Source of the DNA: Minisyncoccia bacterium
GTDB taxonomy: Bacteria; Patescibacteriota; Minisyncoccia; 2-02-FULL-40-12; IGHO2-01-FULL-4-A
Reading direction: 5' to 3'
Assembly (NCBI GenBank): GCA_050015375.1
Contig: JBEKBN010000006.1
Coordinates: 454-64,453 of the forward strand
DNA: 64,000 nucleotides
The notes under the pieces are model-generated. The model was given only the letters and a program-made list of their open reading frames with translations, made no database searches and had not been told where the DNA came from. Within the stretch, counting starts at the first letter, position 1; each line of letters begins with the position of its first letter. Shown here piece by piece: positions 19,892 to 43,213 of the stretch. Position numbers and translations under genes: made by a program.

Positions 19892-20983
19892 GTGAAAATC
19901 GCATTGGTTCAGGACTATCTTGTCGAATACGGCGGGGCCGAGAGGGTTCTTCAGGCGCTTTGCGAAATTTTTCCGGAGGCGCCGATCTACACTTTACTTT
20001 ATGATGAGAAAGCCAGCGGCCGGGTTTTTCGCGACCGCGAGATCCACACCTCCTTTATCCAAAAGATTCCTTTCGCCCGGCGACACCACCGATTATTCGC
20101 GGCTTTGATGCCTTTGGCCATCGAACAATTCGATCTGTCGGAATTTGATTTTGTTTTATCGAACTCGGCTTCCTTCGGCAAGGGCGTCATCACCAAACCC
20201 AAAACCACCCACATCAACTACTGCATGACCCCGACAAGATTTCTTTGGGACGACAGTCATCGTTTTATTGATGAGTTCAAATTGCCTTGGCTGATCAGAA
20301 AAATGACACCAGCCGTCATCGCTTATCTTCGGATCTGGGACAAAGAGGCCGCCTTGCGGGTGGACGAATTCGTCGCTATTTCCAACCATGTAAAAACCCG
20401 GATCGCCAAATATTATCAGCGCGACGCGAAAGTCATCACTCCGCCGATAGATGTCAGCAAATATCATATAAGCCCCGAAGTTGACGAATATTTTTTAATG
20501 GTCGGCCGCTTAGTTGCCTACAAACGCTTTGACCTGGCGATCCAGGTTTTCAACGCCATCGGCAAACCATTGAAGATCGTCGGCGATGGGCCGGAGCGAT
20601 ATCGGCTTGAAAAAATGGCCAAAAAAAATATCGAATTTCTCGGTCTTGTCTCCGATGATAAATTGCCCGGACTCTACAGCCGCGCTCAAGCGGTGATTTT
20701 CCCCCAGGAAGAGGATTTCGGTTTGGTGCCGCTGGAAGCGATGGCTTCGGGCCGGCCGGTCATCGCGTATCGCGCCGGCGGGGCGCTGGAAACGGTCATT
20801 GATGGCCGGACTGGAATATTTTTTGACGAGCAAACGGAAATCTCGATGGCTTTGGCCATCAGCAGATATTACGAAACCAAATTCAATCCCAACGTTATCC
20901 GGGCCCACGCTTTGGATTTCGACAAATCCATCTTCAAGGAGAAAATTCTCAAATTGCTTGCCCCCACACTCAATCGCGATTGA
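19892..20983 (+). CDS. family 4 (group 1) glycosyltransferase
   Basis: GTG start. GT-B fold with C-terminal motif FPQEEDFGLVPLEAMASGRPVIAYRAGG. The stop codon is supplied by a palindromic element. Confidence 0.85.
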   Translation: MKIALVQDYLVEYGGAERVLQALCEIFPEAPIYTLLYDEKASGRVFRDREIHTSFIQKIPFARRHHRLFAALMPLAIEQFDLSEFDFVLSNSASFGKGVITKPKTTHINYCMTPTRFLWDDSHRFIDEFKLPWLIRKMTPAVIAYLRIWDKEAALRVDEFVAISNHVKTRIAKYYQRDAKVITPPIDVSKYHISPEVDEYFLMVGRLVAYKRFDLAIQVFNAIGKPLKIVGDGPERYRLEKMAKKNIEFLGLVSDDKLPGLYSRAQAVIFPQEEDFGLVPLEAMASGRPVIAYRAGGALETVIDGRTGIFFDEQTEISMALAISRYYETKFNPNVIRAHALDFDKSIFKEKILKLLAPTLNRD

Positions 20984-21048: not shown

Positions 21049-23559
21049 ATGCCTCCATCGCGGAATATTCTTGAGGCATTATTTGACATTCGACCGATAA
21101 CCAGATCGGGGTCTCTTGATTTTGAAAAAATCGGCAAGGTCAAAGGCCGCATTAACCTCAAGAAGAAAAAAATTGTTGAGATCGAGACAGTTTCGATCGT
21201 TAAAAAACCGCCATTAAAAAAAACATTGAGCCGCGAGGGTATTTCCAGAGAATTCGAAAGAACAATTGCCGAACCGGTGAATGTGGCCGTAGAGTTGGCC
21301 AGATTCGGCGGCAAGCTTCACGATTACGTCCGAAAAGAAAGACCGGTTGAGATCGAACCGCAGCCGGAGGAAAAGATCGTCGTCGAGAGTCGGGATCTGG
21401 AGAATTTCTGGAAAAGGGAAGACCTATTCGAACAAAGCGAAGCTGAGAGAGAAATTGAAACAGAAGCAGAACCCAAGATCGAACCCGAGATCGCTCTCGC
21501 CGTCGCCGAAAGTTACCACAGCCCAGCCGAAAGAGAGATCGAAGCCGTCCTGGATCTTTATAGAAGAAATAAAATTTCTGTCGTTTCATCGCCAAAGCCG
21601 GAAGAGGAAACTTTTCATCAAAAAAAACCGAAAACGATTCGCTACGCGATGATAGCCCTGGGATTTTTAGTGCTTTTGGGCGCGTCTTTCGCTTATCGGG
21701 GCGGAGAAGATCTGAAGAACAATGTCATGGTCAATGGCGGCAAAGCCGTCGCCAATTTGGAACAAGCCAAGGCGAATCTGGCTAATTTTAATTTTGCCAA
21801 CGCCGCCGACAATTTCGCTTCGGCCTATGACGATTTCGGCAGCGCTTCCGACAATCTCAACAGCATGGGCGCGTCGTTCTTGTCGAATTTCAGCGATCTG
21901 CCCGGACTCTCGAAGGTCAAATCAGCGAACAATTTGGTTTTGGCCGGCCAGCACATTTCCAAAGCCGGCGAGAACTTGGCTTTGGCGTTCAGCACTTTGT
22001 CGAAAACGAATTTTTTGGGCAACAACCCGCTTTCAAAATTGGTTTCCGAATTCAAACAAGTTTTGGTCAACGCCAACGCCAACATCACCGATGCTCAAAA
22101 TTTGGTCGCCGATATTGACGCCTCGGCCCTGCCGACCGACAAACAGCAGTTGTTCATTGATTTCAAAGCAAAAATTCCGGAATTTCAGCAATACATCGGC
22201 AATGCCATTGATTACTCCGATTTCCTGTCGGGCGTCATCGGGGGCGCGGGCAAGACCGAGAAAAAATATCTGATGCTTCTCCAAAACACCAGCGAGCTTC
22301 GGGCGACCGGCGGTTTTCCCGGTTCATATGCCCTGGTAACTTTTGAGAACGGTTCACTGAAAAGCGTCAGTGTTGACGATGTCTATAATATTGACGGCCA
22401 GTTAAAAGTTAATATCATTCCGCCGATCCCGCTTCAGGCGATAACGCCCAACTGGGGCATGCGGGACGCCAATTGGTTCGCTGATTTTCCGGCTTCGGCC
22501 AAAAAAGTGGAGGAATTTTACAAAATGGACACAGCCGGCGCCACCGGCACCGCCGGCGACGACGTTGATGGTGTGTTCTCCATTACGCCCCAGGTCATCG
22601 GCCAAATTCTGGATGTCATCGGCGGACTCGATATGCCCGCGTACGGAATAAAATTGGATTCAAAAAATTTCATCACCCAGATCCAGAGTCAGGTCGAATA
22701 CGGCGCCAACCGCTCCCAGCCCAAAACCATCGTCAAAGACCTTCAGCCGCTGTTATTCGCTAAACTTGCCGCCCAGGATTCCTCGAAGTGGGCCGACATT
22801 TTTAAAATTTTGGTTCAAGCCGTCGGCCAAAAACAAATTCTGGCGTATTTTAACGATGCCAAATTGGAGAACATGGCTCTTCAGAACGGTCTGGGCGGGG
22901 AGGTCAGAACAACGGCTGATGATTATTTGCAAATTGTTTTTTCGAATGTCAAAGGTTCAAAAACAGACGCCGTCATTGATAATAAATTTGATCTCAAGAC
23001 CGATTTGACGGGTGGCACGATAGCGAACACATTGACCATCACCCGGACCCACAACGGCGGCGACAGCCAGTATGGATTTTACAACAAGGTCAGTCCGACA
23101 TATGTCCGTGTCTACGCGCCGTTGGGCTCGGTTCTGGGAAGCGTGACTGGCGATTCCATCACCGATTATCGTCCTTTGATCGGCTACGCGGATTACAATT
23201 TTAAAACCGACCCGAATCTGGGCGCGGTTGAAGATACCACCATTCACCCGTTCAAAGGCGTGGATGTTTTTCAGGAATCGGGTAAAACGGTTTTTGGTTT
23301 TTGGCTGGTCTTGGATCCGAAACAAACCAAATCGGTCACTGTCAGCTACGTCTCGCCGGTTCCCGTGAATACCGGCGGTTATAGCTTGCTTTGGCAAAAA
23401 CAATCAGGCACCGGTAGTGACCCGATATCATTTCAACTGACCTTGCCCGAGGGCGAAAAGATCGCGAGCGCGTCCGACAATTCAACGATTGCCGGAAACA
23501 AATTGAATATAAATTCCGACCTCTCGGTTGACAGGGAAATAAATCTGCAAATCAAATAG
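21049..23559 (+). CDS. large membrane-anchored protein (DUF4012-like) with an acidic EPEIE-repeat N-terminal region
   Basis: 836 aa with a cytoplasmic E/P-rich repeat region, one TM (IALGFLVLLGASF) and a large extracytoplasmic domain containing the ELRATGGFPGSY motif. The family assignment is tentative. Confidence 0.6.
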   Translation: MPPSRNILEALFDIRPITRSGSLDFEKIGKVKGRINLKKKKIVEIETVSIVKKPPLKKTLSREGISREFERTIAEPVNVAVELARFGGKLHDYVRKERPVEIEPQPEEKIVVESRDLENFWKREDLFEQSEAEREIETEAEPKIEPEIALAVAESYHSPAEREIEAVLDLYRRNKISVVSSPKPEEETFHQKKPKTIRYAMIALGFLVLLGASFAYRGGEDLKNNVMVNGGKAVANLEQAKANLANFNFANAADNFASAYDDFGSASDNLNSMGASFLSNFSDLPGLSKVKSANNLVLAGQHISKAGENLALAFSTLSKTNFLGNNPLSKLVSEFKQVLVNANANITDAQNLVADIDASALPTDKQQLFIDFKAKIPEFQQYIGNAIDYSDFLSGVIGGAGKTEKKYLMLLQNTSELRATGGFPGSYALVTFENGSLKSVSVDDVYNIDGQLKVNIIPPIPLQAITPNWGMRDANWFADFPASAKKVEEFYKMDTAGATGTAGDDVDGVFSITPQVIGQILDVIGGLDMPAYGIKLDSKNFITQIQSQVEYGANRSQPKTIVKDLQPLLFAKLAAQDSSKWADIFKILVQAVGQKQILAYFNDAKLENMALQNGLGGEVRTTADDYLQIVFSNVKGSKTDAVIDNKFDLKTDLTGGTIANTLTITRTHNGGDSQYGFYNKVSPTYVRVYAPLGSVLGSVTGDSITDYRPLIGYADYNFKTDPNLGAVEDTTIHPFKGVDVFQESGKTVFGFWLVLDPKQTKSVTVSYVSPVPVNTGGYSLLWQKQSGTGSDPISFQLTLPEGEKIASASDNSTIAGNKLNINSDLSVDREINLQIK

Positions 23560-30038: not shown

Positions 30039-30109
30039 GCGGGATTAGTACAGTGGCAGTACAATTGCTTCCCAAGCAATGGACGCGAGTTCGATTCTCG
30101 TATCCCGCT
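30039..30109 (+). tRNA. tRNA-Gly (anticodon CCC)
   Basis: Acceptor GCGGGAT/ATCCCGC, D-arm GTACAGTGGCAGTAC, anticodon loop TTCCCAA, T-loop TTCGATT. CCA is not encoded. Confidence 0.85.
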
Positions 30110-30269
30110 CAAAAATCAAAAAATTTTTTGATTTTTGAGCGGGTAAGCGAGCAAATTTATTGCTCGCGTCAAGATGAGAACGCCGGAGCGATGTTTCGCG
30201 AGTGATTGGCGAGCGAAACCGCGAGGCGGTGGCTAGACCGAGCCGCCGGAAGGCGGCGAGAGTCGAAGC

Positions 30270-30300: not shown

Positions 30301-30373
30301 GCCGCCTTAGCTCAGTTGGTAGAGCAGCACTTTCGTAAAGTGAAGGTCCCCAGTTCGACTCTGGGAGGCGGCT
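30301..30373 (+). tRNA. tRNA-Thr (anticodon CGT)
   Basis: Acceptor GCCGCCT/AGGCGGC, D-arm TAGCTCAGTTGGTAGAGC, anticodon loop TTCGTAA, T-arm CCCAG-TTCGACT-CTGGG. Confidence 0.8.
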
Positions 30374-30432
30374 CACAGTTTTCAATCAAGTTAAACGGTT
30401 CCGTTGCAGGTTCTTTTACAAGGAGGCGACAA

Positions 30433-31048: not shown

Positions 31049-31342
31049 TCAGTTCTTTATCTTCTCGATGATCTTGTTGGTTTCGAGGATCTTCGGCTGG
31101 GCCAATCGGTAAAAAACCGTGAGCCCCTGCCGGCGGGGAGCGATAATATTAGCGTGGCGCAGGAGCGACAAATGCTGGGACACATTGGCTTTCCGCAAAT
31201 TCAAACCCTTGATCAGATCGGCGACTGCCGTCTCGCCTTTTTTTAAGATATCCAAAATCTCCAGCCGTATCGGGTTGGCCAGGATCTTGTAGAGTTCGGC
31301 TTTTTGCTCGTATTTCTTTTTGTCTTCTTTCGAAACAGTCAT
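31049..31342 (-). CDS. ArsR/SmtB-family transcriptional regulator
   Basis: LANPIRLEILDILKKGETAVADLIKGLNLRKANVSQHLSLLRHANII is an ArsR HTH. Confidence 0.8.
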   Translation of the reverse strand: MTVSKEDKKKYEQKAELYKILANPIRLEILDILKKGETAVADLIKGLNLRKANVSQHLSLLRHANIIAPRRQGLTVFYRLAQPKILETNKIIEKIKN

Positions 31343-31473: not shown

Positions 31474-31517
31474 ATAACATGTAGATATTGACCATATGGT
31501 CAATATCTACATGTTAT
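31474..31517. promoter_or_regulatory. 44-bp perfect palindrome (ATAACATGTAGATATTGACCAT|ATGGTCAATATCTACATGTTAT), putative operator
   Basis: Perfect dyad 30 bp upstream of the PaaX-like gene, in a divergent region shared with arsR. A near-copy is at 32111-32138. Confidence 0.6.
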
Positions 31518-31546
31518 TGTTTTATAGTTTCTGTTATTATGTATTC

Positions 31547-32113
31547 ATGAAGGCGATAAGAAGAGGAACCCTAGCTTTTAAAATTTTAAAAGGCATTGGT
31601 CTAACGGGTTTGTTTTTAATAAGCATGTCGAACCCGCGTTTTGGGGTTCAGTTATTGACGGGATTTAAAGAATATAACAAAAGGGAGAAACAAAAATTCA
31701 GAGAATCGTTATATTATTTGAAAAAAAGAGGATTGGTAAAAATCATAGAAAACAGTAGCGGCGGCTTTACGGCCAAATTGTCAAAGACCGGAGAAAAAAT
31801 GTTGGAATCTATCGACATTGATTGTCTTGAATTGAAAAATAAGGAATTTGATGGAAAATGGCGCGTGGTTATCTTTGATGTTCCGGTCAGATTGAATATT
31901 AAAAGACACGCTTTTACGGAACGACTGAAAACTCTGGGTTTTATCATGGTTCAAAGAAGTGTATGGATTTGTCCGTTTAGGTGCAGAAAAGAACTGGCGA
32001 TGTTAACCCAATTTTACGAAATTGAGAAATACGTCACATATTTAGAAACATCTTTTGTGGATAACGAAGAAGCGTGGAAAAAAGAGTTTTCACTAATCAA
32101 ACTGGTGGCTTAG
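31547..32113 (+). CDS. PaaX-like regulator: N-terminal winged helix plus a C-terminal Cas2-fold domain
   Basis: SLYYLKKRGLVKIIE (wHTH), then GKWRVVIFDVPVRLNIKRHAFTERLKTLGFIMVQRSVWICPF, which resembles the Cas2/PaaX_C motif (YDV..KRR...L...G.R.Q.SV). Confidence 0.5.
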   Translation: MKAIRRGTLAFKILKGIGLTGLFLISMSNPRFGVQLLTGFKEYNKREKQKFRESLYYLKKRGLVKIIENSSGGFTAKLSKTGEKMLESIDIDCLELKNKEFDGKWRVVIFDVPVRLNIKRHAFTERLKTLGFIMVQRSVWICPFRCRKELAMLTQFYEIEKYVTYLETSFVDNEEAWKKEFSLIKLVA

Positions 32114-32217: not shown

Positions 32218-32246
32218 TTGACGGTGAAATCCATGAACATTATAAT
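32218..32246 (+). promoter_or_regulatory. sigma-70-like promoter (TTGACG-17 nt-TATAAT) upstream of the tasA-like gene
   Basis: Near-consensus -35/-10 about 80 nt upstream of 32327. Confidence 0.5.
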
Positions 32247-32326
32247 TTCGATATAACTAAACAATTTCCGTCGGAGGCGACTTTGACTTAAAGTAAAAGC
32301 CGAGAAAAACGGGAATTTTTCACGAA

Positions 32327-33637
32327 GTGAAAAAAATAATTTTGAGTTTGGCAGTTATCGGCGCGGTTTCGGTCGGCGTCATCGGAGGGACACGCTCTTT
32401 TTTCAGCAATGTCGAAACCTCGACCGGCAATTCTTTCACCGCCGGCGGAATTGATCTGAAGGTCGGGAATGTTAGTTATTACAACGGCGTCGCTTCGGCC
32501 AGCAGTTCCTGGTCGGCCAAGGATTTGGCGGCGGGAGATTTATTTTTTAATTTTTCTAATTTAATGCCCGGCGATATCGGTGAAAATTTAGTTGACCTGA
32601 ATGTCAAAGGCAATGACGCCTATGCTTGCATGACTGTTGCCATTACCGGAACTTCCAAAAACGGCCAGACCGGCGACAACGCAGGCGAATTGCAAAATGA
32701 ATTACATTTCACTTTTTGGGCCGATAACGGCGACAATGTTCTTGAAAGCGATGAAGTGGGCAAAATTTTTGTGGATAATGAAACTCTGGCGCAAATTGCC
32801 AGCAGTCAGGCGAAGATCATCTTAGCTGATTCGACAAAAAATGTTTGGAATACTGCCATGGTTGCCGGTTCGATGACCAGCGGCCAGACATACCACATCG
32901 GCAAAGTATTTTGTTACGGATCGTTGACCCAAGCCCTGGCCGCGCCCGGCATAAACGATCCGACTAAAGTCAGCGGATTTAATTGTAACGGGACATCGGT
33001 GAGTGATGCTTCCCAAACCGACGGTGTTTTGGGAGATATCAGTTTCACGGCGATCCAGTCGAAGAACAACGGTTCCTTCCGATGCAATCCCGTGGCGACA
33101 GTGACGCCGACCCCGACCCCGATTGCAATCTGGAATGATAATTTCGGAATTGGAGATGATAGCAATATAGTTGACAGCTGGGCCAAAACAAATGGTAACA
33201 CCGCCAGTGTCAGCGCTTATGGTACCTATGCCAAAAAGCCAACCACGGGTGATAATTCGGAAAGCCCCGACAATGGGCGGTTTGCACTTATTGCCGGCAA
33301 AGAATGGATTTGCCATCAGGTTGACGCGACGGGCTTGATGGATTTAACTCTTAGTTATTATTGGCGGGGAGATATTGACGCCGGCGTTTTAGATAATGGA
33401 GTAGTTGAATATCTTATTAACGGCGCCTGTGATTCATTAACTGGCTGGACAACTTTGGCAAATCATCAGCTTATCAAAGATGATTCTGGTAAAACCTCTT
33501 GGAGTGCGCTCCAGACCTTGAACTTGCCGGGCGACTTAAATAATACCCAATTTTTGATTCGCTTTCGCAGCAACTCTTCATCTCAAACGAAAAGCTTTCG
33601 AATTGATAACGTGAGCATGACCGGAATTCCAAATTAA
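32327..33637 (+). CDS. TasA/camelysin-like secreted protein with a SipW-cognate signal peptide
   Basis: N-terminus MKKIILSLAVIGAVSVGVIGGTRSFFSNVETSTGNSFTAGGIDL is the TIGR04088-type SipW-cognate signal. SipW is encoded immediately downstream. Confidence 0.7.
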   Translation: MKKIILSLAVIGAVSVGVIGGTRSFFSNVETSTGNSFTAGGIDLKVGNVSYYNGVASASSSWSAKDLAAGDLFFNFSNLMPGDIGENLVDLNVKGNDAYACMTVAITGTSKNGQTGDNAGELQNELHFTFWADNGDNVLESDEVGKIFVDNETLAQIASSQAKIILADSTKNVWNTAMVAGSMTSGQTYHIGKVFCYGSLTQALAAPGINDPTKVSGFNCNGTSVSDASQTDGVLGDISFTAIQSKNNGSFRCNPVATVTPTPTPIAIWNDNFGIGDDSNIVDSWAKTNGNTASVSAYGTYAKKPTTGDNSESPDNGRFALIAGKEWICHQVDATGLMDLTLSYYWRGDIDAGVLDNGVVEYLINGACDSLTGWTTLANHQLIKDDSGKTSWSALQTLNLPGDLNNTQFLIRFRSNSSSQTKSFRIDNVSMTGIPN

Positions 33638-33666
33638 TTCACGGGTTAACTGATTTACCGGTTCAA

Positions 33667-34536
33667 ATGAAAATAATTTTCAGGATTCTTTATTATTTGT
33701 TTTTCACGGCGGTTATTGTCGTTGTTTTGGCGTTGCTGGTGTCATTATTTCCGATTTTCGGGGGATTGAAGTTTTTCATTGTTCGATCGGGCTCGATGGC
33801 ACCGGCGATCAAAACCGGAAGCGTAGTGATGGTCAAACCCGAAGCCGATTACAAAATCGGGGATATAATATCGTTCAGTTTGGATGAAAAAAATGAAATA
33901 CCCACGACTCACCGCATCAAGGAAATAAAAATCAAAAACGGAATTCAGAAATTTATCACTCAAGGCGACGCCAACAACGCGCCGGACATGGTTGAAATTG
34001 AAAAAGAAAATATTATCGGCAAAGTGATTCTGACCGTTCCTTTAGCCGGATATTTGGTTGCAGTCGCTCAAAAACCGAGCGGTTATCTGGCGCTGATATT
34101 GATTCCGGCGTTCGTGATAATCGGCGACGAAATCTCGAAGATCATCAGGGAAACGAGAAAAAAACGTCAAGAGAAAAGCCAATCAAGCAACAAATCAATC
34201 CCATTCTATATTTTTTGTTTGGGTCTGGGACTTGCCGAGCTTTTACTCCCATCAATTCGCGCAAATTCGTTTTTCACGGCGACTGAAACCGGTGGGTTGA
34301 TGATAGTTGCCGGTTCGTGGTCACACGCCAAGACATCGGGCATCGCTATCGTGGCTCAAGAACCGACTTCTGATTCCGAGATTGACGTTCAAATCGCGAG
34401 TGGCGCTTCGGGAATCGAGTCAAATAAGGATGAACTAGCCCCAGAGCCGGCGGCGCCTCCGGCGCCGCCGGCCCCCGAAATCCCGCCGGCCGAAACCACC
34501 GTGGCGAGTCCTTCCGCCGAAATCATTCATGATTAA
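33667..34536 (+). CDS. sipW: signal peptidase I, SipW/archaeal type (S26B), with a Pro/Ala-rich C-terminal extension
   Basis: FIVRSGSMAPAIKTGSVVMV (SGSMxP), catalytic His in PTTHRI, and a second TM. The C-terminus is PEPAAPPAPPAPEIPPAE. Confidence 0.8.
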   Translation: MKIIFRILYYLFFTAVIVVVLALLVSLFPIFGGLKFFIVRSGSMAPAIKTGSVVMVKPEADYKIGDIISFSLDEKNEIPTTHRIKEIKIKNGIQKFITQGDANNAPDMVEIEKENIIGKVILTVPLAGYLVAVAQKPSGYLALILIPAFVIIGDEISKIIRETRKKRQEKSQSSNKSIPFYIFCLGLGLAELLLPSIRANSFFTATETGGLMIVAGSWSHAKTSGIAIVAQEPTSDSEIDVQIASGASGIESNKDELAPEPAAPPAPPAPEIPPAETTVASPSAEIIHD

Positions 34537-35410
34537 AACAAAAGTAAAACCAATTTTGACGGCAATTATTCTGTTTTTCGTTTTTTCGACCATTTTTTTG
34601 TCCGTCGTCAGTGTTCAAGCCGCCGATTTTCAGGTTACCTTCCAAAATCATCCGCTTTTCAAAAACGCCAATTTCATTCCCGGCGATTCGATCACTCGTT
34701 GGATCAAGGTCGTCAACAACAGCGGCCAAAATCAAACCGTCTTGATAAAAAGCGACAATGCCAGCGACCCCAATCACATGGACGGCGCAATGAATCTGAC
34801 CATCAAACAAGGGACCGCCACGCTTTATCAGAATTCTTTCGCTGATTTTTTGAGCGGGGACTTGATCGCTCTTTCTGAACTTGATAGCGGAAAAAGCGCT
34901 CAATATAATCTGACGGTTACATTCGATTTGTCCGCTGATGATCTTTATCAAAACAAGACGCTTGGTTTTAATATTCTTGTCGGTTTTGAACCGACCGGCT
35001 ACGAACAAAGCGATACCGGCACAACTTTTCTAACTGACAATCCCGATAATAAAGTCGAGGTTGTAACAATGACGCCGACGCCTTCGATAATTTCGTCGTC
35101 GCCGACGCCGACTCCGTCGGCGTCGGCGACCCCATCTCCCCGGCTAAAACCCAGCGTGAGTCCAATTTTACTTCGATCATCGCCAGCGCCCGTAATCGTT
35201 CACAATATTTCTTCCGCTACCACGTTATCCGCCAATTCACTTGCAACCCCGAACCTCCCGCCGTCTCTGACGACCGCCAATCCCGTCCGCCAACCCCAAC
35301 TCGCCCTCATTCTCGGCGTTTCCCCGACCCGCTGGCTGATCTATATTTTCATTTCCCTATTTGTCGGTATCGTTTCTTATGTAATTTCAAAAAAGTGGTT
35401 TAAAAATTAA
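34529..35410 (+). CDS. secreted surface protein with a Pro/Thr/Ser linker and a C-terminal TM anchor
   Basis: Signal peptide, a beta-rich domain, a PTPS-rich linker and the C-terminal anchor IYIFISLFVGIVSYVISKKWFKN. The anchor-coding segment is duplicated at 36193-36262. Confidence 0.5.
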   Translation: MIKTKVKPILTAIILFFVFSTIFLSVVSVQAADFQVTFQNHPLFKNANFIPGDSITRWIKVVNNSGQNQTVLIKSDNASDPNHMDGAMNLTIKQGTATLYQNSFADFLSGDLIALSELDSGKSAQYNLTVTFDLSADDLYQNKTLGFNILVGFEPTGYEQSDTGTTFLTDNPDNKVEVVTMTPTPSIISSSPTPTPSASATPSPRLKPSVSPILLRSSPAPVIVHNISSATTLSANSLATPNLPPSLTTANPVRQPQLALILGVSPTRWLIYIFISLFVGIVSYVISKKWFKN

Positions 35411-35517: not shown

Positions 35518-36135
35518 ATGAAAAGAATGACCGTTTTGGGTTTGTTTCTGGTGGTTTTCCTGACCGTGTTTGCCGTATCGGTGAACGCCGAGACATTGGC
35601 ATTTAACGGCTATCCGTGGGGACTGAACGACGGTTCCTTCTATGTTGGAGACGCCGCCGGCACGCTGGGGACGAATAATATTGTAATGTGGTGCGTGGAT
35701 CCACTTCACGAAATCACGTTGAGTCCCTGGGATGTTACTGTCGTGTCTCTGGCAAATCCAATCGGACTAAACGGATTGCCCTTGACTGTGGCCGACTACG
35801 AGGCAATGTTTCTCCTCGGTCAGCAGTTCACGAATACAAACCAAACGATAGATGTGGCGCTACAGCACGAGATCTGGTCGTTCGCTAACCCGTCGGCATA
35901 TCCTCTTACGGTAGCCGAGCAAGGGCAGAAAAACGACGCCATAGCAGCGATCGGCGGTTATAACTTTTTGGGCGCTGACGTTCTTGTTCCCCAGGGAGAT
36001 CCTAGCGGGTGGACAGGGCAGGTTTTCGAGACCGGCACCGCGACTATGGTCCCTGAGCCCGCGTTCATCTTACTGTTAGGCCTGGGCCTAATGGGTGTCG
36101 TTCTGGCGGCCGGAGGAAGAAAACAGAAAAACTAA
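35518..36135 (+). CDS. secreted protein with a C-terminal PEP-CTERM sorting signal
   Basis: SD GAGGAGAGGAG. Signal peptide. The C-terminus VPEPAFILLLGLGLMGVVLAAGGRKQKN is a canonical PEP motif plus TM plus basic tail. No exosortase gene is in the window. Confidence 0.65.
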   Translation: MKRMTVLGLFLVVFLTVFAVSVNAETLAFNGYPWGLNDGSFYVGDAAGTLGTNNIVMWCVDPLHEITLSPWDVTVVSLANPIGLNGLPLTVADYEAMFLLGQQFTNTNQTIDVALQHEIWSFANPSAYPLTVAEQGQKNDAIAAIGGYNFLGADVLVPQGDPSGWTGQVFETGTATMVPEPAFILLLGLGLMGVVLAAGGRKQKN

Positions 36136-36412: not shown

Positions 36413-39400
36413 TTGTTTATGAAAATAAACAAACTTGGGGGGGGGCTTAAGTGGTCGATTTTCGCAACTCTTTTAGCAACCGCTCTAGTAGGCGGATTTT
36501 TTGTACACAATGCCAAGGCGACTGTTAGCACCTGTTCTGATATCACCCTTGGTGTGACTCAAATCACTGCTATCCAAACCTATGCCACCGCTGACAATAC
36601 TTTTGCCGACGGCTGGAAATGGGTTTTCAATGTTACCGTTCCGACTTGCCAAACACTTCTTCAAATGAGATTCGGTGACTGGGTTGGAACCGCTGGCACC
36701 ATTCCAGCCGCGACAAATATTCAATTTTATTCTAATCAATCTACAAATGCAGCCGATGAGGCGCACGCAATAATTATCAGTGCCGCTAATACATATAGTG
36801 GTTTGATGATCCTTTCTGGTGCTGATCTTGATGGGTCAACACCCGGCACCCAGATCCAAATAACAGTTGAAGCGAGAGTTCCAATTGATTCAGCTGGTGG
36901 TTCTTACTCGACAAGTTATGGCATACAATCGAATCCTGCACCGACCGTTCTATTCGTTCTCCCTATCGGTAACATCAATGTTGCTAATGGCACCGCTCTT
37001 GATGCTGTAGGTTTGCCGGCTAATGCTACCGTAGGTTTGAGCAACGGAAACACTCAATTAATGGCAGTCGTTTGGGATGGTGGTACGCCAACTTATGACG
37101 GCACAACAGCTGGCACCTATGCTTTTACAGGTGCATTGACTTTACCTGCTGGTGTTACTAATCCGGACGGCAAAACAGCCAACGTAAACGTAATTGTGGA
37201 ACCAATACCTACCCACACCATTACCTCCTCTGTTGTAGGCGCATCTGTCTTTGGTCCGAAACACGGCACGATTTCTCCTCTCGGTGCAACGACCGTGAAT
37301 GATGGCGACAGCCAGACCTACACGATTACGCCCGATACCGGCTACCAGATTCTTGAGCTTAAAGTGGACGGTGTTTCCACAACGCCGGCCGACAGTTATA
37401 CTTTCACCAATGTCACAACTGACCATACCATTGCCGTGAGCTTTGCCCCGATTACTTATACCTTAACCTATTCCGCCGGAGCCCATGGTTCCATTGTTGG
37501 AACTTCGCCCCAGGCAGTAAATTACGGCGCTGATGGAACAGCCGTGACTGCGACGCCAGCCGAGGGTTATCATTTCGTAGGTTGGAGCGATCAGTCAACA
37601 ACTAATCCGAGAACCGACAACGATGTAACCGGCAATATTGATGTCACTGCCAGTTTTGCAGTTAACCAATATACAATTACTTTTGGTTCAAATGGTGGCT
37701 CAGCCGTAGCTTCCATAACTCAGGATTATGGCTCACCGGTTACTCCACCAGACGATCCAACTCGAGCAGGTTATACCTTCGCCGGTTGGGTTCCAACAGT
37801 TCCGGCAACGATGCCATTAGGCGGAGCGAGTTTAGTTGCCCAGTGGACTGCTGTTGTTGCACCAATCACCCACACTCAAAAGGATCTGACGACTTGGGTT
37901 CCGATTCAGGGTGGAATAACTGCCGATGTAACAATTTCAACAGTAAATAATAAATTCCACGCAGACGGAGTTCCAACTGGATATACTTTGGTGTATTACC
38001 CTAATGTTGGAACTTATGATACCTACACTGGAGAAGTTTATCCTGTAGAGGGCACTAATATGGATCTTCCAATGTCAGATGATTTGAATCGCGGTAAAGA
38101 AGATTACTGCAATAATGGATTTAATCCACACGCAATTCACTGTGATGGCGCTAAGTTGTGGCTTGTTCCAACCGAAGACATATCAACAACAATTAATTCT
38201 GATGGAAGCCAGACATTGGTTGGAGATTGGAATACGATCGCTCCGAATATTTTGTTCGAGACAAATCTGATAACTTATCAAGCAACTCCGATCACTCACA
38301 CCCAAAAGGATCTGAACACCTGGGCTCCACTTCCAAATGGAATAACTGCCGATGTTACATATGACCTGACCGGAGATACTTTCCAAGCGACCGGAGTTCC
38401 ACCTGGATATACTTTGGTGTATTATCCTAAACCCGCAACTTGGACCGGATTGGTCTATTCCGTCATTGGTAATAGCATGACCCTTCCAATGCCAGGTGAT
38501 TTGAATGGTAGTCCATCATCAGATTACTGTACCGTTAGAAATAGTGAGGGGAATTTGGAAAATCCGCATGAAATAATTTGCCAAGGAGCCGCGTTGTGGC
38601 TTGTTCCAACGGGTGAATTAACAGATAACCACGATGGGACTTATACAATTAATTGGGGCACTGCTTCTGATATTTTGTTCGAGACAGACCTGATAAATTA
38701 CACAGCTCCGACTTCTACCCCAAGCGCTAATCTTATTCTCACCGCTCCAGATGCCACAACTATTAATCAATCTGCTTTAGTTCCTGAAACGAGCAACGGA
38801 ATACCCACTGGCGGAAACTCAACAGTTGATACTGCCATCAATGGCCTTAGCCCGATTGCGGTGAGGTTGCAGAATACCGGCGATGCCGCTTCTGCTAATG
38901 TTCGCATCAGCCCGATTGGCGACGCTTCTGGGCACATTCAGTTATGGGCAAAAGATACTTTAGGTAATTGGTATGACATCAATGTTACTGGCTGGGGGCC
39001 AGCCGAAGGTTTTCCAGTGCCAGCCCCATACGATGCCACTACTAATGTCTATGCGATTTCCGACGAAGTAGGATCTTATGACATGATAGCTAATTTGATT
39101 TTGGTAAGTAATTCATCACTCGTTGCGCACACAAAGGGAATAATTACCGTTGCCCCTGCCCCGACCCTTTTGTTTGATACCGGCATCACTGATGGTTCCA
39201 CTATCTTACCGGGTACACTTGCAACTCAGTTCACGATTACAACTACGGGTGTCCCGGGTACGATGCACACGCTTGGGTTAACGGGCACCACAGCAACTCC
39301 AGCTCTTGCAGATGGCAATTATGACTTTAAGCTTGTGGCAACCTCAGACGTGCAAGCCGCTTTGACTTCTTATTTTGGAGCTAAGGCAGGATGGACTTCG

Positions 39401-40051
39401 GATATGCAAATGCAAACTCAAATCAATTCTGAAATTGCTGGCAGCTCGCCATTCTTCAAACTAAACGCTGCCAGCGGCGCCTATTCCTTAGTGGATAATT
39501 TCAAACAAACACTTGGCTTGCCAGATACATCCCTGACTATTGATGATGATTATCCAACCGGCACATACGTCTATACCGGCACACTTACTGGAACAAACAG
39601 CGCGACCCTGCCGGTTACTGTAACATTGGTAGTTGAAGGACCAACTCCGCCACCAACTCCTTCTGTAACACAATTGAAAATTATTACTAATCCGCAAACT
39701 ATTCTGGTAGATACCGCTTCAGGTGTGATTAGAGTGGAATCAGAGGACGCGTTAGGGAATCCATTAAAAGTTTCAGTTGCGACAGAAGTAGATTTCACCT
39801 CCAGTCCTGGAACAGGTTTGTTTTCTTCGGCAAATTATGAAAGTAAAACGTGTAATGACGATTGGTTAAGCACGCAAAGTTTAACCATAGAGAAAGGAAC
39901 TGCACATATAAGTTTCTGTTACAAAGACAACGTGGCGGGAACGCCGACACTAACAGCTTCTTCTGATGACTTGACTCCTGGTACTCAAGTAATTACAATA
40001 ACCTCAACTGATACCAGCTCAACTGACACTAGCGACACCACGCAACAATAA
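36413..40051 (+). CDS. giant repeat-rich cell-surface protein (Listeria-Bacteroides/flg_new-type repeats, Ig-like domains)
   Basis: 1212 aa with a signal peptide, repeated modules (ITHTQKDL...GVPTGYTLVYYP twice) and GYTFAGW-type repeats. A G9 tract sits in the signal-peptide coding region. Confidence 0.75.
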   Translation: MFMKINKLGGGLKWSIFATLLATALVGGFFVHNAKATVSTCSDITLGVTQITAIQTYATADNTFADGWKWVFNVTVPTCQTLLQMRFGDWVGTAGTIPAATNIQFYSNQSTNAADEAHAIIISAANTYSGLMILSGADLDGSTPGTQIQITVEARVPIDSAGGSYSTSYGIQSNPAPTVLFVLPIGNINVANGTALDAVGLPANATVGLSNGNTQLMAVVWDGGTPTYDGTTAGTYAFTGALTLPAGVTNPDGKTANVNVIVEPIPTHTITSSVVGASVFGPKHGTISPLGATTVNDGDSQTYTITPDTGYQILELKVDGVSTTPADSYTFTNVTTDHTIAVSFAPITYTLTYSAGAHGSIVGTSPQAVNYGADGTAVTATPAEGYHFVGWSDQSTTNPRTDNDVTGNIDVTASFAVNQYTITFGSNGGSAVASITQDYGSPVTPPDDPTRAGYTFAGWVPTVPATMPLGGASLVAQWTAVVAPITHTQKDLTTWVPIQGGITADVTISTVNNKFHADGVPTGYTLVYYPNVGTYDTYTGEVYPVEGTNMDLPMSDDLNRGKEDYCNNGFNPHAIHCDGAKLWLVPTEDISTTINSDGSQTLVGDWNTIAPNILFETNLITYQATPITHTQKDLNTWAPLPNGITADVTYDLTGDTFQATGVPPGYTLVYYPKPATWTGLVYSVIGNSMTLPMPGDLNGSPSSDYCTVRNSEGNLENPHEIICQGAALWLVPTGELTDNHDGTYTINWGTASDILFETDLINYTAPTSTPSANLILTAPDATTINQSALVPETSNGIPTGGNSTVDTAINGLSPIAVRLQNTGDAASANVRISPIGDASGHIQLWAKDTLGNWYDINVTGWGPAEGFPVPAPYDATTNVYAISDEVGSYDMIANLILVSNSSLVAHTKGIITVAPAPTLLFDTGITDGSTILPGTLATQFTITTTGVPGTMHTLGLTGTTATPALADGNYDFKLVATSDVQAALTSYFGAKAGWTSDMQMQTQINSEIAGSSPFFKLNAASGAYSLVDNFKQTLGLPDTSLTIDDDYPTGTYVYTGTLTGTNSATLPVTVTLVVEGPTPPPTPSVTQLKIITNPQTILVDTASGVIRVESEDALGNPLKVSVATEVDFTSSPGTGLFSSANYESKTCNDDWLSTQSLTIEKGTAHISFCYKDNVAGTPTLTASSDDLTPGTQVITITSTDTSSTDTSDTTQQ
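36437..36445 (+). repeat. homopolymeric G9 tract within codons 9-11 of the giant surface protein gene
   Basis: AAACTTGGGGGGGGGCTTAAG. The only G/C homopolymer of 8 nt or more that I found in the window. Confidence 0.8.
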
Positions 40052-40065
40052 ACAACTAAAACCCT

Positions 40066-40749
40066 ATGAAAAAAAATATATTGATAATTTTAGTGTATGG
40101 ATTGCTGGCGGTGTCGCTGTTTGTGTTTGGTAATCGGGTGTTTGCGGACCAAGTCACCGGAACTCTGACAACAGGAATTAGCGGCAATAACGGCCAAACA
40201 ATGAATGGCGTGGTCATTGCTCCGCCGATACCTAGCCCATTGCCCGGAACCTATCCCTTAACACAGGATAACGTGGCCCTAAAAGTTGGTTTGTCTTCCG
40301 CCGGTTCGATGAGTATTCGCTATGCTACAGATGGGTCTGTACTGACATGCGCTAACGGGAATCTATACAATGCTAATGCTCTGATTCCGGTGAGTGTCAC
40401 AACGACAATTGAGGCAATCTCGTGTTATCCAAATGGAATTTCATCTGCGGTCGCTGGTTTCACTTATACAATTAATCCGGCGACTCCGACTCCAACGCCT
40501 ACCACATCTACTGGTGGCGGCGGGGGAGGCGGGGGCTCATATTATTCCTTTACCCCGACCCCAACTCCGAGTCCAGGTGTGGCCATAGTGGGCGATATAA
40601 ACGGTAATGGTAAGGTGGATATTAGTGACTTCGATATGTTGATGAACAATTGGGGGAAAACCGGAACTGGAATCCAAGGCGATTTGGACCACAACGGCGT
40701 TGTTGATATATTGGATTTTAATTTATTGATGGCTAACTGGAGTAAATAA
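40066..40749 (+). CDS. dockerin-domain secreted protein
   Basis: C-terminus GDINGNGKVDISDFDMLMNNWGK...GDLDHNGVVDILDFNLLMANWSK is two canonical dockerin type I Ca-binding repeats. Also carries a signal peptide and a Gly8 linker. Confidence 0.7.
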   Translation: MKKNILIILVYGLLAVSLFVFGNRVFADQVTGTLTTGISGNNGQTMNGVVIAPPIPSPLPGTYPLTQDNVALKVGLSSAGSMSIRYATDGSVLTCANGNLYNANALIPVSVTTTIEAISCYPNGISSAVAGFTYTINPATPTPTPTTSTGGGGGGGGSYYSFTPTPTPSPGVAIVGDINGNGKVDISDFDMLMNNWGKTGTGIQGDLDHNGVVDILDFNLLMANWSK

Positions 40750-40768: not shown

Positions 40769-41518
40769 ATGAAAAAAATATTGTTCAGTTCAATACTGGT
40801 CACTGGATTCGCGGTTTTTTTTGTCGGAAATGCTCTGGCCGATTCATCAATATCGTTGTCGCCGGTTAGTATTTCTCCGAAAGCGGGAAGCACGGTCAAT
40901 GTTACCGTGACGGTCAATCCAAATAGCGTCAGTAATTCAACCGTAAAGCTTGTACTTAATTATCCCGCCGATCTTCTGCAAGCAACAGGATTCACTTTTG
41001 CCGGTAACTGGATGCCGTTGACTCAAACCGGTTACGATTCCATCGATAACACAGGAGGTACCCTGATTAAAACTGGCGGTTATCCGGGCGGATTCTCGAC
41101 AACCACGACCCTTGGCACGGTAACATTCAAAGCGAAGAGAACCGGCACCGGCGCAATCAGTATCGGAAGCGGTTCAATGGTTCTGGATTTAAGCAGTAAA
41201 AATGTTTTGACCGATATTTCTTCAACTGTGACAATTTCAATTCCGACTTTAACAGCGCCGACTCCGAAACCGTCAACAATTGTAGGCAATATTCCGGCAG
41301 TTTCGCCGGTAACTGGCGTCACTGAATCGGCGACGCCGAGCCCCATTGTCGCCGCCAATGCATTGCCAGCCAATGGCCAGCAATACGGCACTATCGCCAC
41401 GGCCCTCGGAATTCATAACGGCACGTGGTGGATTTGGCTAGTAGTTCTCTTGGTCATCATCTATCTCATCTATCGGATATTCAGGAAAAGATCCGGCCCG
41501 AGCCAGCCGACTCAATAA
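40769..41518 (+). CDS. cohesin-like domain protein with a C-terminal TM anchor
   Basis: Signal peptide and a beta-sandwich region (VKLVLNYPADLLQATGFTFAGNW...GTVTFKAKRTGTGAISIG) resembling cohesin. C-terminal anchor WWIWLVVLLVIIYLIYRIFRKR. Confidence 0.5.
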   Translation: MKKILFSSILVTGFAVFFVGNALADSSISLSPVSISPKAGSTVNVTVTVNPNSVSNSTVKLVLNYPADLLQATGFTFAGNWMPLTQTGYDSIDNTGGTLIKTGGYPGGFSTTTTLGTVTFKAKRTGTGAISIGSGSMVLDLSSKNVLTDISSTVTISIPTLTAPTPKPSTIVGNIPAVSPVTGVTESATPSPIVAANALPANGQQYGTIATALGIHNGTWWIWLVVLLVIIYLIYRIFRKRSGPSQPTQ

Positions 41519-41706: not shown

Positions 41707-42243
41707 ATGAAAATACCGCTACCAAAACTCAAGGCGATTATTAGGTATTTTGGTACCCATACTGATCCCAAATTTCTCGGCAAGGTTAAATTAATGAAAC
41801 TTTTCTACTTTCTTGATTTCATGCATGTCAAAAAATTTGGTGCACCCATAACATATGACTGTTATATCAACTTAGAACATGGTCCAATACCGTCAGCTAT
41901 TAAAAATCTAGTTGACTCGGCCGCAGATGATATTGATAATTCCGTCCTCGCTGACGCAATCAGGATTGAAAGACCGCAAAGTACCGATATGTACAGAGTG
42001 GTGCCTCTTAGGGAATTCAATAAAGCTGATGAAAATTATTTCTCTGAAACCGAGCTCGAAACATTAAAAAAAGTATGCGCAAGGTTTAGCGACAAAAATA
42101 CGAAATTCATTGAAGATGAATCTCACAAAGAAGCTCCGTGGAAAGAAACCAAGTTTTTGGATGTAATACCCTACGAACTCGCCACTAAGGACAAAGATTG
42201 TTTAATATCCGAAGAAGAAATAAAACTACTTCTTTCTATCTGA
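41707..42243 (+). CDS. Panacea-domain (DUF4065, SocA/PanA-like) antitoxin
   Basis: KVKLMKLFYFLDFMHVKKFGAPITYDCYINLEHGPIPS and ESHKEAPWKETKFLDVIPYELA match the DUF4065/Panacea consensus (KLQKLLYF..., SHxExPW). Confidence 0.75.
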   Translation: MKIPLPKLKAIIRYFGTHTDPKFLGKVKLMKLFYFLDFMHVKKFGAPITYDCYINLEHGPIPSAIKNLVDSAADDIDNSVLADAIRIERPQSTDMYRVVPLREFNKADENYFSETELETLKKVCARFSDKNTKFIEDESHKEAPWKETKFLDVIPYELATKDKDCLISEEEIKLLLSI

Positions 42244-42667: not shown

Positions 42668-43213
42668 ATGAACATACCGACGAAAATATTTTTTACAAAA
42701 GGGGTGGGAGCGCACAAAGACCGGCTGGCTTCTTTTGAGATGGCTTTGAGGAATGCCGGCATTGAAAAATGCAATCTGGTTTATGTCTCAAGTATTTTTC
42801 CTCCCCGGTGCAAGATCGTTACAAAAGAAGAAGGTATGAAATCGCTGGAGGCGGGCCAGATAACTTTTTGCGTCATGGCAAGGAATGAAACCAACGAACC
42901 CAACAGATTGATCTCTTCGGCGATCGGAGTCGCCGTGCCAAGAGACAATAGCACTTACGGTTATTTGTCGGAGCATCATAGTTTTGGAGAGAAAGCGGAA
43001 ATAGCCGGCGAATACGCGGAAGACCTGGCCGCCACCATGCTTGCCACCACTCTTGGAATAGAATTTGATCCGGCCACGGCCTGGGAAGAAAGAGAACAAA
43101 TTTACAAAGCAAGCGGGTACATATTTAAGACATCAAATTTTTGCCAGACGGCCGAAGGAAACAAAAACGGATTATGGACAACAGTCATCGCCGTCGCGGT
43201 AATGCTGGAATAA
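42668..43213 (+). CDS. pdaD: pyruvoyl-dependent arginine decarboxylase
   Basis: [37 protein letters not shown] matches the PdaD family, including the Ser-Ser self-cleavage site. Confidence 0.8.

Follow-up and report, generated by a model that had tools for sequence, protein, structure and literature searches.

Analysis of a 64,000-nucleotide stretch of DNA (the window) from contig JBEKBN010000006.1 of a Minisyncoccia bacterium has revealed that three adjacent genes, coding for a TasA-like protein (gene 1), a SipW-type signal peptidase (gene 2) and a secreted protein with a predicted C-terminal anchor (gene 3), probably represent, in this genome, an operon met repeatedly in the Patescibacteria that would produce a SipW-dependent fibre of the TasA type, with an initiator, a shaft and a membrane anchor. 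The candidate initiator is encoded at many related loci by a separate gene, termed here gene X, and the long C-terminal tail of the window peptidase quite likely derives from a gene X remnant that became joined to sipW. That the products of the three genes form one fibre module had been proposed in a previous sequence-only reading of the window, made without database searches, and this proposal is now supported by profile matches, predicted folds and gene neighbourhood. The three co-directional open reading frames (ORFs) were confirmed on the + strand at 32327-35410, where that reading had placed them:

32327-33637, + strand: gene 1, TasA-like subunit (436 aa, GTG start).
33667-34536, + strand: gene 2, SipW-type peptidase with tail (289 aa), beginning 29 nt 3' of gene 1.
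34529-35410, + strand: gene 3, anchored protein (293 aa).

The conservation of this arrangement was evaluated in 80 genome loci fetched around SipW homologues, almost all of them from Patescibacteria, whose six-frame ORFs were scanned with hidden Markov models (HMMs) built from our own alignments. Neighbourhood counts were made over 82 loci with sipW and are lower bounds, because many loci are cut by contig ends:

Upstream gene with a cognate signal: 59 of 82 loci.
Gene X: 48 of 82 loci.
Downstream gene-3-type gene: 60 of 82 loci.
Cognate-signal gene upstream plus gene-3-type gene downstream: 51 of 82 loci.

The order that recurs is first one to four genes for TasA-like proteins bearing the cognate N-terminus, then sipW (~175 aa), gene X and a gene-3-type gene. 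Neighbourhood conservation, a check proposed together with the previous reading, is therefore strong on both sides of sipW. Homologues of genes 1 and 2 come nearly all from Patescibacteria assemblies, the three-gene arrangement of the window is also present in the independent assemblies L001, L084 and L085, and identical proteins are encoded on an ENA contig. Gene X was found in loci L004-L072 (for example, at 8518-10749 of L004), and codes for proteins of ~290-1350 aa; an overlap with the 3' end of sipW is frequent. Eight of these proteins were read; they consist of a membrane helix, a clear cognate motif, GxTxAYFNDTExSxxNxFxAGxLDFSL, a beta-sandwich and a long acidic C-terminus rich in Glu, Pro and Val, with no C-terminal anchor, and in seven of them a lamin-tail-like stretch (VVLNEFLPNP...GEWVELYN) was recognized by eye. 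The window holds no separate gene X.

Three segments have been distinguished in the protein encoded by gene 1; confidence in models computed with AlphaFold 2 (AF2) is given here and below as the predicted local distance difference test (pLDDT):

32399-32458, + strand: predicted mature N-terminus and donor-strand segment, FFSNVETSTGNSFTAGGIDL, gene 1 residues 25-44 (alignment with TasA).
32447-33094, + strand: TasA/camelysin-type beta-sandwich, gene 1 residues 41-256 (family HMM E 1e-80; pLDDT mostly 83-95).
33122-33634, + strand: C-terminal jelly-roll, lectin/adhesin-like domain, gene 1 residues 266-436 (Foldseek).

A diagnostic SipW-cognate signal peptide had been ascribed to this protein from its sequence. 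The motif GGTRSFFSNVETSTGNSFTAGGIDL is indeed present, and the model TIGR04088 ('SipW-dependent-type signal peptide') matches residues 8-41 with 25.7 bits, above its cut-off of 19 (E 8.9e-6). The name did not hold in full, since the segment FFSNVETSTGNSFTAGGIDL aligns with the donor strand of TasA and the motif would thus be largely mature donor strand and not signal peptide proper. The donor strand of TasA comprises residues 28-38, at the mature N-terminus made by SipW, and is the strand that the next subunit needs for a complete fold (PMC9674648). The alignment of FFSNVETSTGNSFTAGGIDL with TasA A28-L46 was carried out by hand and needs one extra residue; by analogy, cleavage of the gene 1 protein is predicted after S24. 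Residues S32, G34, N35, G40, D43 and L44 are invariant in the family alignment, and in the AF2 model the pLDDT falls below 50 for residues 15-40, so that the segment is unpacked in the monomer.

The gene 1 family comprises 493 homologues in a word-indexed search, mostly from Patescibacteria, in which the first ~255 residues are conserved, with four invariant Cys, and the C-terminal part is variable, with VWA, SpaA-like, MAM or Reelin subrepeat (B) domains among the relatives. The Pfam model for camelysin/TasA, PF12389 (named Peptidase_M73), gave 22.1 bits on gene 1 for a gathering threshold of 22.5, and it was matched by 26 of 30 aligned family members (E <= 1e-3; best 4.7e-10). The AF2 model of the 436-aa protein (mean pLDDT 79.6) contains two beta-rich domains, and the TasA/camelysin fold that had been anticipated was found in it, as Foldseek matched the TasA fibre 8aur_A with E 6e-5, probability 1.00 and a template modelling (TM) score of 0.47 on the target, at rank 49. 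The C-terminal domain resembles the gingipain K3 adhesin domain (TM 0.63) and a porphyran-binding carbohydrate-binding module (TM 0.67). When family profiles were compared with PDB sequences, a chance hit (E 1.1) was obtained for one of them and no match for the gene 1 family profile (A3). According to these data, the product of gene 1 would be the shaft subunit of the fibre. The name of the Pfam family, together with a homologue (P0133) labelled 'M73 family metallopeptidase', would instead make gene 1 an M73 'camelysin' metalloprotease, which is very improbable: no HExxH-type motif was seen on reading the gene 1 protein, the peptidase label is held to be a likely misidentification of CalY (PMC11580942), and TasA is a structural fibre protein (PMC9674648).

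Gene 2 codes for a peptidase domain followed by a tail composed of two parts:

33667-34182, + strand: SipW-type peptidase domain of the endoplasmic reticulum (ER)/archaeal type (S26B) with two membrane helices, gene 2 residues 1-172 (TIGR02228).
34183-34332, + strand: basic linker, third helix (residues 177-195) and motif ANSFFTATETGGLMIVAGSW (34261-34320), gene 2 residues 173-222 (hydrophobicity, alignment).
34333-34536, + strand: acidic Pro/Ala-rich tail and stop, gene 2 residues 223-289 (composition).

The assignment of this protein to the SipW/archaeal-type signal peptidases, previously made from the SGSMAP and PTTHRI motifs, was corroborated, as both motifs are present and the model for archaeal-type signal peptidase I, TIGR02228, gave 110.3 bits against a cut-off of 51.85. 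A grouping with the general LepB-type enzymes was not found: the LepB-type model TIGR02227 remained at 26.5 bits, below its cut-off of 47, the only solved relatives were human SEC11A (E 7.5e-11) and SEC11C (E 3.3e-9), and no LepB-type chain appeared among the solved-structure matches. Residues Ser43 (SGSM), His82 (THRI), Asp101 and Asp107 are invariant in the SipW alignment and align with SEC11A, and from work on SipW and SEC11, Ser43 and His82 are presumably the catalytic Ser/His, not Ser-Lys. The Bacillus SipW equivalog model NF046067 gave 108 bits, under its cut-off of 190, and gene 2 is therefore SipW-like in type and not a Bacillus orthologue in NCBI's sense.

Among the 120 best SipW homologues, almost every one has 167-201 aa, and the 289 aa of the window protein represent ~115 residues extra. 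The unusual Pro/Ala-rich C-terminal tail described in the previous reading is real (residues 223-289), although that description was incomplete, as the third membrane helix and the cognate-like motif had not been recognized. From the peptidase domain onwards, the tail consists of the basic stretch RKKRQEKSQSSNKS, the third hydrophobic helix, IRANSFFTATETGGLMIVAGSW and the acidic Pro/Ala-rich end. The helix, with basic residues before it, sits where gene X normally starts and is kept in the homologues P0002 and P0003, and the motif has the spacing found in TasA. The composition of the tail (acidic residues 0.20, Pro 0.18) resembles that of the last 60 residues of gene X (0.30 and 0.13) and departs from the background (0.13 and 0.05), and the last 8 nt of the tail, stop codon included, are shared with gene 3, an overlap found likewise at certain X/gene-3 junctions (e.g. 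L002). In the window, L001 and L084 there is no gene X and sipW is directly followed by gene 3. The beta-sandwich and lamin-tail-like domains of X are absent from the tail, which extends only ~110 aa after the peptidase domain, so that the tail would be a remnant and not a member of the gene X family. We infer, with good support, that in this lineage the body of gene X was lost by an internal deletion and that both of its ends, the helix with the motif and the acidic C-terminus, became fused in frame to sipW. In-frame SipW::X fusions with a strong motif were also found at the following loci:

L046, 8001-9491: SipW::X fusion of 496 aa, passenger domain kept.
L071, 8001-9182: SipW::X fusion of 393 aa (Levybacteria), passenger domain kept.
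L075, 8001-9362: SipW::X fusion of 453 aa (Curtissbacteria), passenger domain, lamin-tail-like by eye.
L033, 7992-8735: SipW::X fusion of 247 aa, truncated, ending shortly after the motif.

An assembly or frameshift artefact joining sipW to the next ORF could produce a similar tail, given that sipW and gene X overlap in different frames at most loci, where a single indel could fuse them, and that the sequences are metagenome assemblies. Such an error is hardly credible here, since the same fused frame is found in the window and L085 (ENA), in the Joint Genome Institute (JGI) contig P0001, in L084 (89% identical) and in L001 (63%), the last two loci coming from other samples; moreover, the substitutions show a coding pattern, and the ~350 nt between the peptidase domain and gene 3 leave no room for the body of X. 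The ratio of non-synonymous to synonymous substitutions (dN/dS) in gene 2, calculated between the window and L084, was 0.084 for the peptidase domain (residues 1-172), 0.097 for the linker, helix and motif (residues 173-222) and 0.37 for the Pro/Ala end (residues 261-289). The helix and the donor-strand-like motif of the tail are thus under purifying selection, with a dN/dS of about 0.1, and in one relative they have kept 62% identity, for a peptidase domain with 72%.

The regular expression [FY][FL].[ADN][TSV]E.{6,9}AG gave 71 matches in 554,251 residues of six-frame ORFs; 69 of them lie in ORFs with a recognized cognate N-terminus, and the two remaining matches fall in the SipW tails of the window and of L001. 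Several observations weigh against the origin of the tail from gene X: this expression was written after the tail had been seen, the tail motif scored 0.9 bits with the HMM of the X N-terminus, not separable from noise window-wide (the tail of L001 reached 5.6 bits), neither TIGR04088 nor any other NCBIfam model matched the isolated SipW tail, and the middle of the tail (residues 223-260) is nearly neutral, with a dN/dS of 0.73. As the HMM score is insignificant, the remnant reading is based on synteny, topology, composition, selection and the post-hoc expression. The degenerate motif and the nearly neutral middle part would also fit a tail without function, left over from a decayed gene X, translated after loss of a stop and playing no part in the fibre, and so would the absence of a tail from most SipW homologues (~170-180 aa) and the unrelated Lys- or Glu-rich tails of other long SipW proteins. 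This possibility is nevertheless considered unlikely, because the helix and motif are constrained like the catalytic domain, their identity in the relative mentioned above has followed that of the peptidase domain, and full SipW::X fusions have been retained in independent lineages.

Separately, Lys/Glu-rich C-terminal extensions of 50-110 residues, with neither helix nor motif, were observed at 7995-8684 of L047, 1-756 of L049 and 207-923 of L059, and in the homologue P0108. They are predicted on the cytoplasmic side, which indicates that SipW tails are of more than one kind.

Gene 3 overlaps gene 2 by 8 nt (ATGATTAA), and the features attributed to it before, namely the overlap with sipW, secretion, a PTPS-rich linker and a C-terminal anchor, were all recovered, with a signal-like helix at the N-terminus and a hydrophobic helix at residues 261-279. 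The signal peptide is of the ordinary kind, with no donor motif, and it is followed by these segments:

34625-34996, + strand: beta-sandwich homologous to the gene X domain, without the donor-strand segment, gene 3 residues 33-156 (hhalign).
34997-35308, + strand: Pro/Thr/Ser-rich linker, gene 3 residues 157-260 (sequence; pLDDT < 50).
35309-35389, + strand: C-terminal membrane helix and then KKWFKN, gene 3 residues 261-287 (hydrophobic at 261-279; helix in the model).

A word-index search gave three relatives of gene 3, which could have been taken for an orphan; this was rejected, as an exhaustive HMMER search gave 1051 representatives (E <= 1e-3), 533 of them at E <= 1e-10. The family has an N-terminal domain of ~120 aa with the pattern PLFxEANFLPGDxVTRWVKVTNNSG ... 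YQGKxLGFDILIGF, to which the window protein conforms and which is matched by no Pfam or NCBIfam model. In many relatives this domain is followed by a Gly-rich linker, a low-complexity stretch and a C-terminal membrane helix with basic residues after it, and 13 of 30 aligned relatives carry a domain of the FN3 or purple-acid-phosphatase-N type, in the place of which the window protein has its Pro/Thr/Ser linker. Among 63 gene-3-type ORFs, the C-terminal helix was present in 43, several of the others being truncated by contig ends, and the cognate motif was present in none.

The domains of gene X and gene 3 were related by hhalign (97.6%, E 3.5e-12), and the relationship was extended in a global alignment including the N-termini (99.3%, E 4e-19), in which the signal helices align. 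This alignment contains a gap in gene 3 exactly over the X segment 'AyFnDxExSxxNtfxAg' and resumes at LxVxF / LDFSL. As judged from these profiles, the gene 3 domain is homologous to the X domain minus exactly the putative donor-strand segment. The best PDB match of the gene 3 AF2 model (mean pLDDT 60, ~73-91 in the domain) was the TasA fibre 8aur_A (E 1.7e-4), and the matches of lower rank included the subunits of donor-strand filaments CanA, FimH, CfaB and PsaA. The link of X and gene 3 to TasA is drawn from this fold match and, for X, from the shared N-terminus; sequence homology between the gene 3 and gene 1 families is not claimed, as profile comparisons gave no signal. Neither gene 3 nor the tail is matched by a Pfam or NCBIfam family of any kind, and the resemblance to TapA is functional only. 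The product of gene 3 would be the membrane-anchored base of the fibre.

A mechanism may be proposed by analogy with TasA/TapA of B. subtilis and BsaA of C. perfringens. SipW would cut the gene 1 protein after about Ser24, exposing the donor strand that begins with FFSNVETSTGN. The freed strand would enter the beta-sandwich of the next subunit, building a shaft in which each subunit exposes one lectin-like domain. The fibre would be started by a donor that needs no strand itself, normally the product of gene X and in the window the tail, which would be either released from SipW by a cut near the junction of IRA and NSFF or still tethered to it. The gene 3 protein, able to accept a strand and with none to give, would terminate the chain and cap the fibre, tethering it through the linker of ~100 residues and the C-terminal helix. 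The description of the Bacillus TasA fibres as amyloid-like, made in the sequence-only reading, has not been maintained, because TasA fibres are now known to be polymers formed by donor-strand exchange (PMC9674648).

The predicted topology of the fused SipW, with the N-terminus inside, the catalytic domain outside, the second helix back in, the basic loop inside and the third helix out, places the IRA-NSFF junction on the side of the active site, and a putative self-cleavage, in cis or in trans, is thus sterically plausible. It is conceivable, if rather doubtful, that SipW carries its own substrate and cuts itself, releasing the initiating strand at 1:1 with the peptidase and forming with gene 3 an initiator/shaft/terminator system. 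The N-terminus of TapA resembles a donor strand and is put by AlphaFold-Multimer in the groove of TasA, and biofilm structuring needs only a fraction of the TapA N-terminal residues (PMC9674648, PMC10151520). On the self-cleavage reading, the window, where just the strand and an acidic tail are left, would have a minimal initiator similar to TapA and supplied by the peptidase. With respect to BsaA, the oligomers are membrane-anchored, and it has been proposed that they are retained by the signal sequence of the last-added monomer until this is cut by SipW (PMC11580942).

Some results speak against a TasA-type fibre in the window. The PF12389 score of gene 1 is 0.4 bits short of the gathering threshold, and TasA appears only at rank 49 in the structural search, because lectin-like matches dominate a search with two domains. 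The gene 3 model was built on three sequences and its TasA match has TM scores of 0.29 and 0.36, the profile comparison of the gene 3/X domain with the TasA domain of gene 1 gave a probability of 0.2-2%, and polymerisation would be deduced, by analogy, from genes and single-chain models. A system with no polymer may also be considered, in which SipW matures a single lectin-like adhesin (gene 1), gene 3 codes for a separate anchored adhesin and the motif serves only for recognition by the peptidase. The large C-terminal domain of binding type in gene 1, the VWA, SpaA-like and MAM domains of its relatives, similar to those of single adhesins, and the failure to detect a sequence relationship of the gene 3 domain with that of gene 1 would agree with this explanation, as would the fact that BsaB and the VWA protein BsaC, encoded in the sipW operon of C. 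perfringens, were not found in long oligomers (PMC11580942). A system of this kind seems unlikely, however, since the motif corresponds to the donor-strand segment of TasA (PMC9674648) and is nearly invariant in the gene 1 family, well beyond what a cleavage site needs, the gene-3-type proteins keep the sandwich without exactly the donor segment, and many loci have two to four paralogous TasA-like genes, as in fibres made of several subunits. A fibre polymerised by donor-strand exchange is the preferred interpretation.

Compared with tapA-sipW-tasA of B. subtilis, the window operon shares a dedicated ER-type peptidase encoded beside its substrates, tightly overlapping genes, a jelly-roll major subunit with the conserved N-terminal segment that is the donor strand in TasA and a putative accessory strand donor, which is TapA there and would be gene X or the tail here. 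The two systems differ in gene order, in the several TasA paralogues at other Patescibacteria loci and in the C-terminal lectin-like domain of the window subunit; in addition, the accessory proteins are not detectable TapA homologues, anchoring would occur via the C-terminal membrane helix of a subunit and not via the cell wall, and the peptidase is below the SipW equivalog cut-off (108 vs 190 bits) and bears a fused substrate-like tail. The operon sipW-bsaA-bsaB-bsaC of C. perfringens is similar in combining sipW with several TasA-like proteins, in the polymer growth proposed at the membrane, in the added binding domain (VWA in BsaC and in many gene 1 relatives) and in the anchored BsaB variant with LPXTG of other strains, although this anchor is a sortase signal there and a membrane helix here. 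BsaA possesses an intermolecular isopeptide lock formed by Asn, Lys and Glu, and its possible counterparts in the Patescibacteria are N35 in the donor strand and E86, both invariant in the gene 1 family alignment, and the nearly invariant K80 (DLKPGD). At the K80 position the window protein has Met and its closest relative Gln, and if a covalent lock exists in the family, the window lineage would have lost it.

The archaeal bundling pili (AbpA/AbpB) and related filaments are also made of TasA-like jelly-roll subunits, which are polymerised there by donor strands, and include a second, larger protein proposed as initiator or adhesin, but the archaeal operons lack a dedicated signal peptidase (PMC9245690), which is the most conserved element here. 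The logic deduced for the window would likewise parallel that of chaperone-usher and sortase pili, with an exclusively donating tip or initiator, a shaft subunit acting as both donor and acceptor, and a subunit at the base that stops growth and serves as anchor; this is an analogy only, as there is no homology and no chaperone, usher or sortase.

Patescibacteria are ultrasmall, and all cultivated members are known to live attached to other microbes, type IV pili being the main means of attachment known for them. A recurring operon for TasA-type fibres would give them a second candidate attachment apparatus, with exchangeable binding domains on the subunits (lectin-like here, VWA or SpaA-like in relatives). 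The family of the putative base subunit, with more than 1000 representative clusters, has no Pfam annotation for its N-terminal domain. The acceptor-only gene 3, the strand-donating gene X and the several cases of a peptidase fused to a substrate may be regarded as natural experiments on how donor-strand fibres such as those of TapA/TasA start and stop. If true, the combination of a self-substrate SipW and an acceptor-only gene 3 would define an initiator/shaft/terminator architecture for TasA-type fibres. SipW/TasA operons as such are already well known. In the literature searched, an incomplete library, the sole mention of TasA homologues in Patescibacteria was the distribution of PF12389, which includes this group (PMC9245690); no dedicated TasA/SipW study in Patescibacteria or the candidate phyla radiation was found, nor any description of the operon, gene X, the gene 3 family, the SipW-substrate fusions or an initiator/shaft/terminator architecture for TasA systems.

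Downstream of gene 3, the following genes for surface proteins are located:

35518-36135, + strand: PEP-CTERM protein, 205 aa, secreted (PF07589, 21.5 bits vs 20.7; TIGR02595, 16.4 vs 16).
36413-40051, + strand: 1212-aa protein with Big_4 and Listeria-Bacteroides repeats.
40066-40749, + strand: small dockerin protein (PF00404, 25.9 bits vs 22.9).
40769-41518, + strand: cohesin-like protein with a C-terminal membrane helix (21.1 bits, below the cut-off of 24.1).

The PEP-CTERM protein and the dockerin that had been noted next to the operon are confirmed by these scores, and the cohesin of the supposed cohesin/dockerin pair falls below its threshold. It had also been suggested that the three genes, the PEP-CTERM protein and the cohesin/dockerin pair belong to one surface-appendage island, to which the 1212-aa repeat protein may be added here. 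All these genes lie on the same strand within 9 kb, and no convincing terminator was found 3' of gene 3, so that co-transcription with these neighbours may occur. A larger island is nonetheless quite unlikely and this proposal is not supported, since these neighbours are missing from L001, the one close relative whose downstream flank was read, where a different downstream gene is present, the cohesin match is below threshold, and there is no exosortase among the window ORFs of 150 aa or more in which at least three membrane helices are predicted. Besides gene 2, nine ORFs of this kind were found, corresponding to SecY, FtsX (two), EamA, VTT, a sugar transferase, PAP2, an ABC-2 permease and one without a Pfam match. 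The recurring partners of the operon are instead gene X and the gene 3 family; the tally over the 82 SipW loci covered cognate-signal, gene X and gene-3-type genes only. A PEP-CTERM protein is unexpected in a Patescibacterium, and the dockerin and cohesin-like genes may encode a cohesin-dockerin pair exposed at the surface of this ultrasmall cell. Just downstream of the surface cluster, on the + strand, are an antitoxin-like gene with a SocA/Panacea domain (41707-42243) and a gene for a pyruvoyl-dependent arginine decarboxylase (42668-43213).

The start at 32218 given previously for the operon does not correspond to any codon but to the first base of a promoter-like site:

32218-32246, + strand: promoter-like site TTGACG-17-TATAAT, intergenic, 11 of 12 consensus positions.

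This site is ~80 nt 5' of the start codon of gene 1 and is a match to the consensus alone, as the number of promoter-like sites in the region is not above that of shuffled sequence. Directly upstream of the operon there are genes for two possible regulators, an ArsR-type helix-turn-helix protein (31049-31342, - strand) and a second protein whose N-terminus is hydrophobic and which carries a PaaX central (Cas2-like) domain (31496-32113, + strand). The flanking housekeeping genes include those for SecY, LepA, RF-1 and FtsX/FtsE-type proteins, and a mobile island was rejected, since the guanine plus cytosine content matches that of the flanks, being even across the window, and housekeeping genes are located on both sides. 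Two tRNA genes on the + strand, tRNA-Gly(CCC) at 30039-30110 and tRNA-Thr(CGT) at 30301-30374, lie ~2 kb upstream, with no other hint of an integration site. Further upstream, a gene for an 836-aa DUF4012 protein (21049-23559, + strand) adjoins one for a glycosyltransferase of family GT4 (19892-20983), and these two genes, together with a Bac_transf sugar transferase gene at 13590-14975, suggest envelope glycan synthesis in the region.

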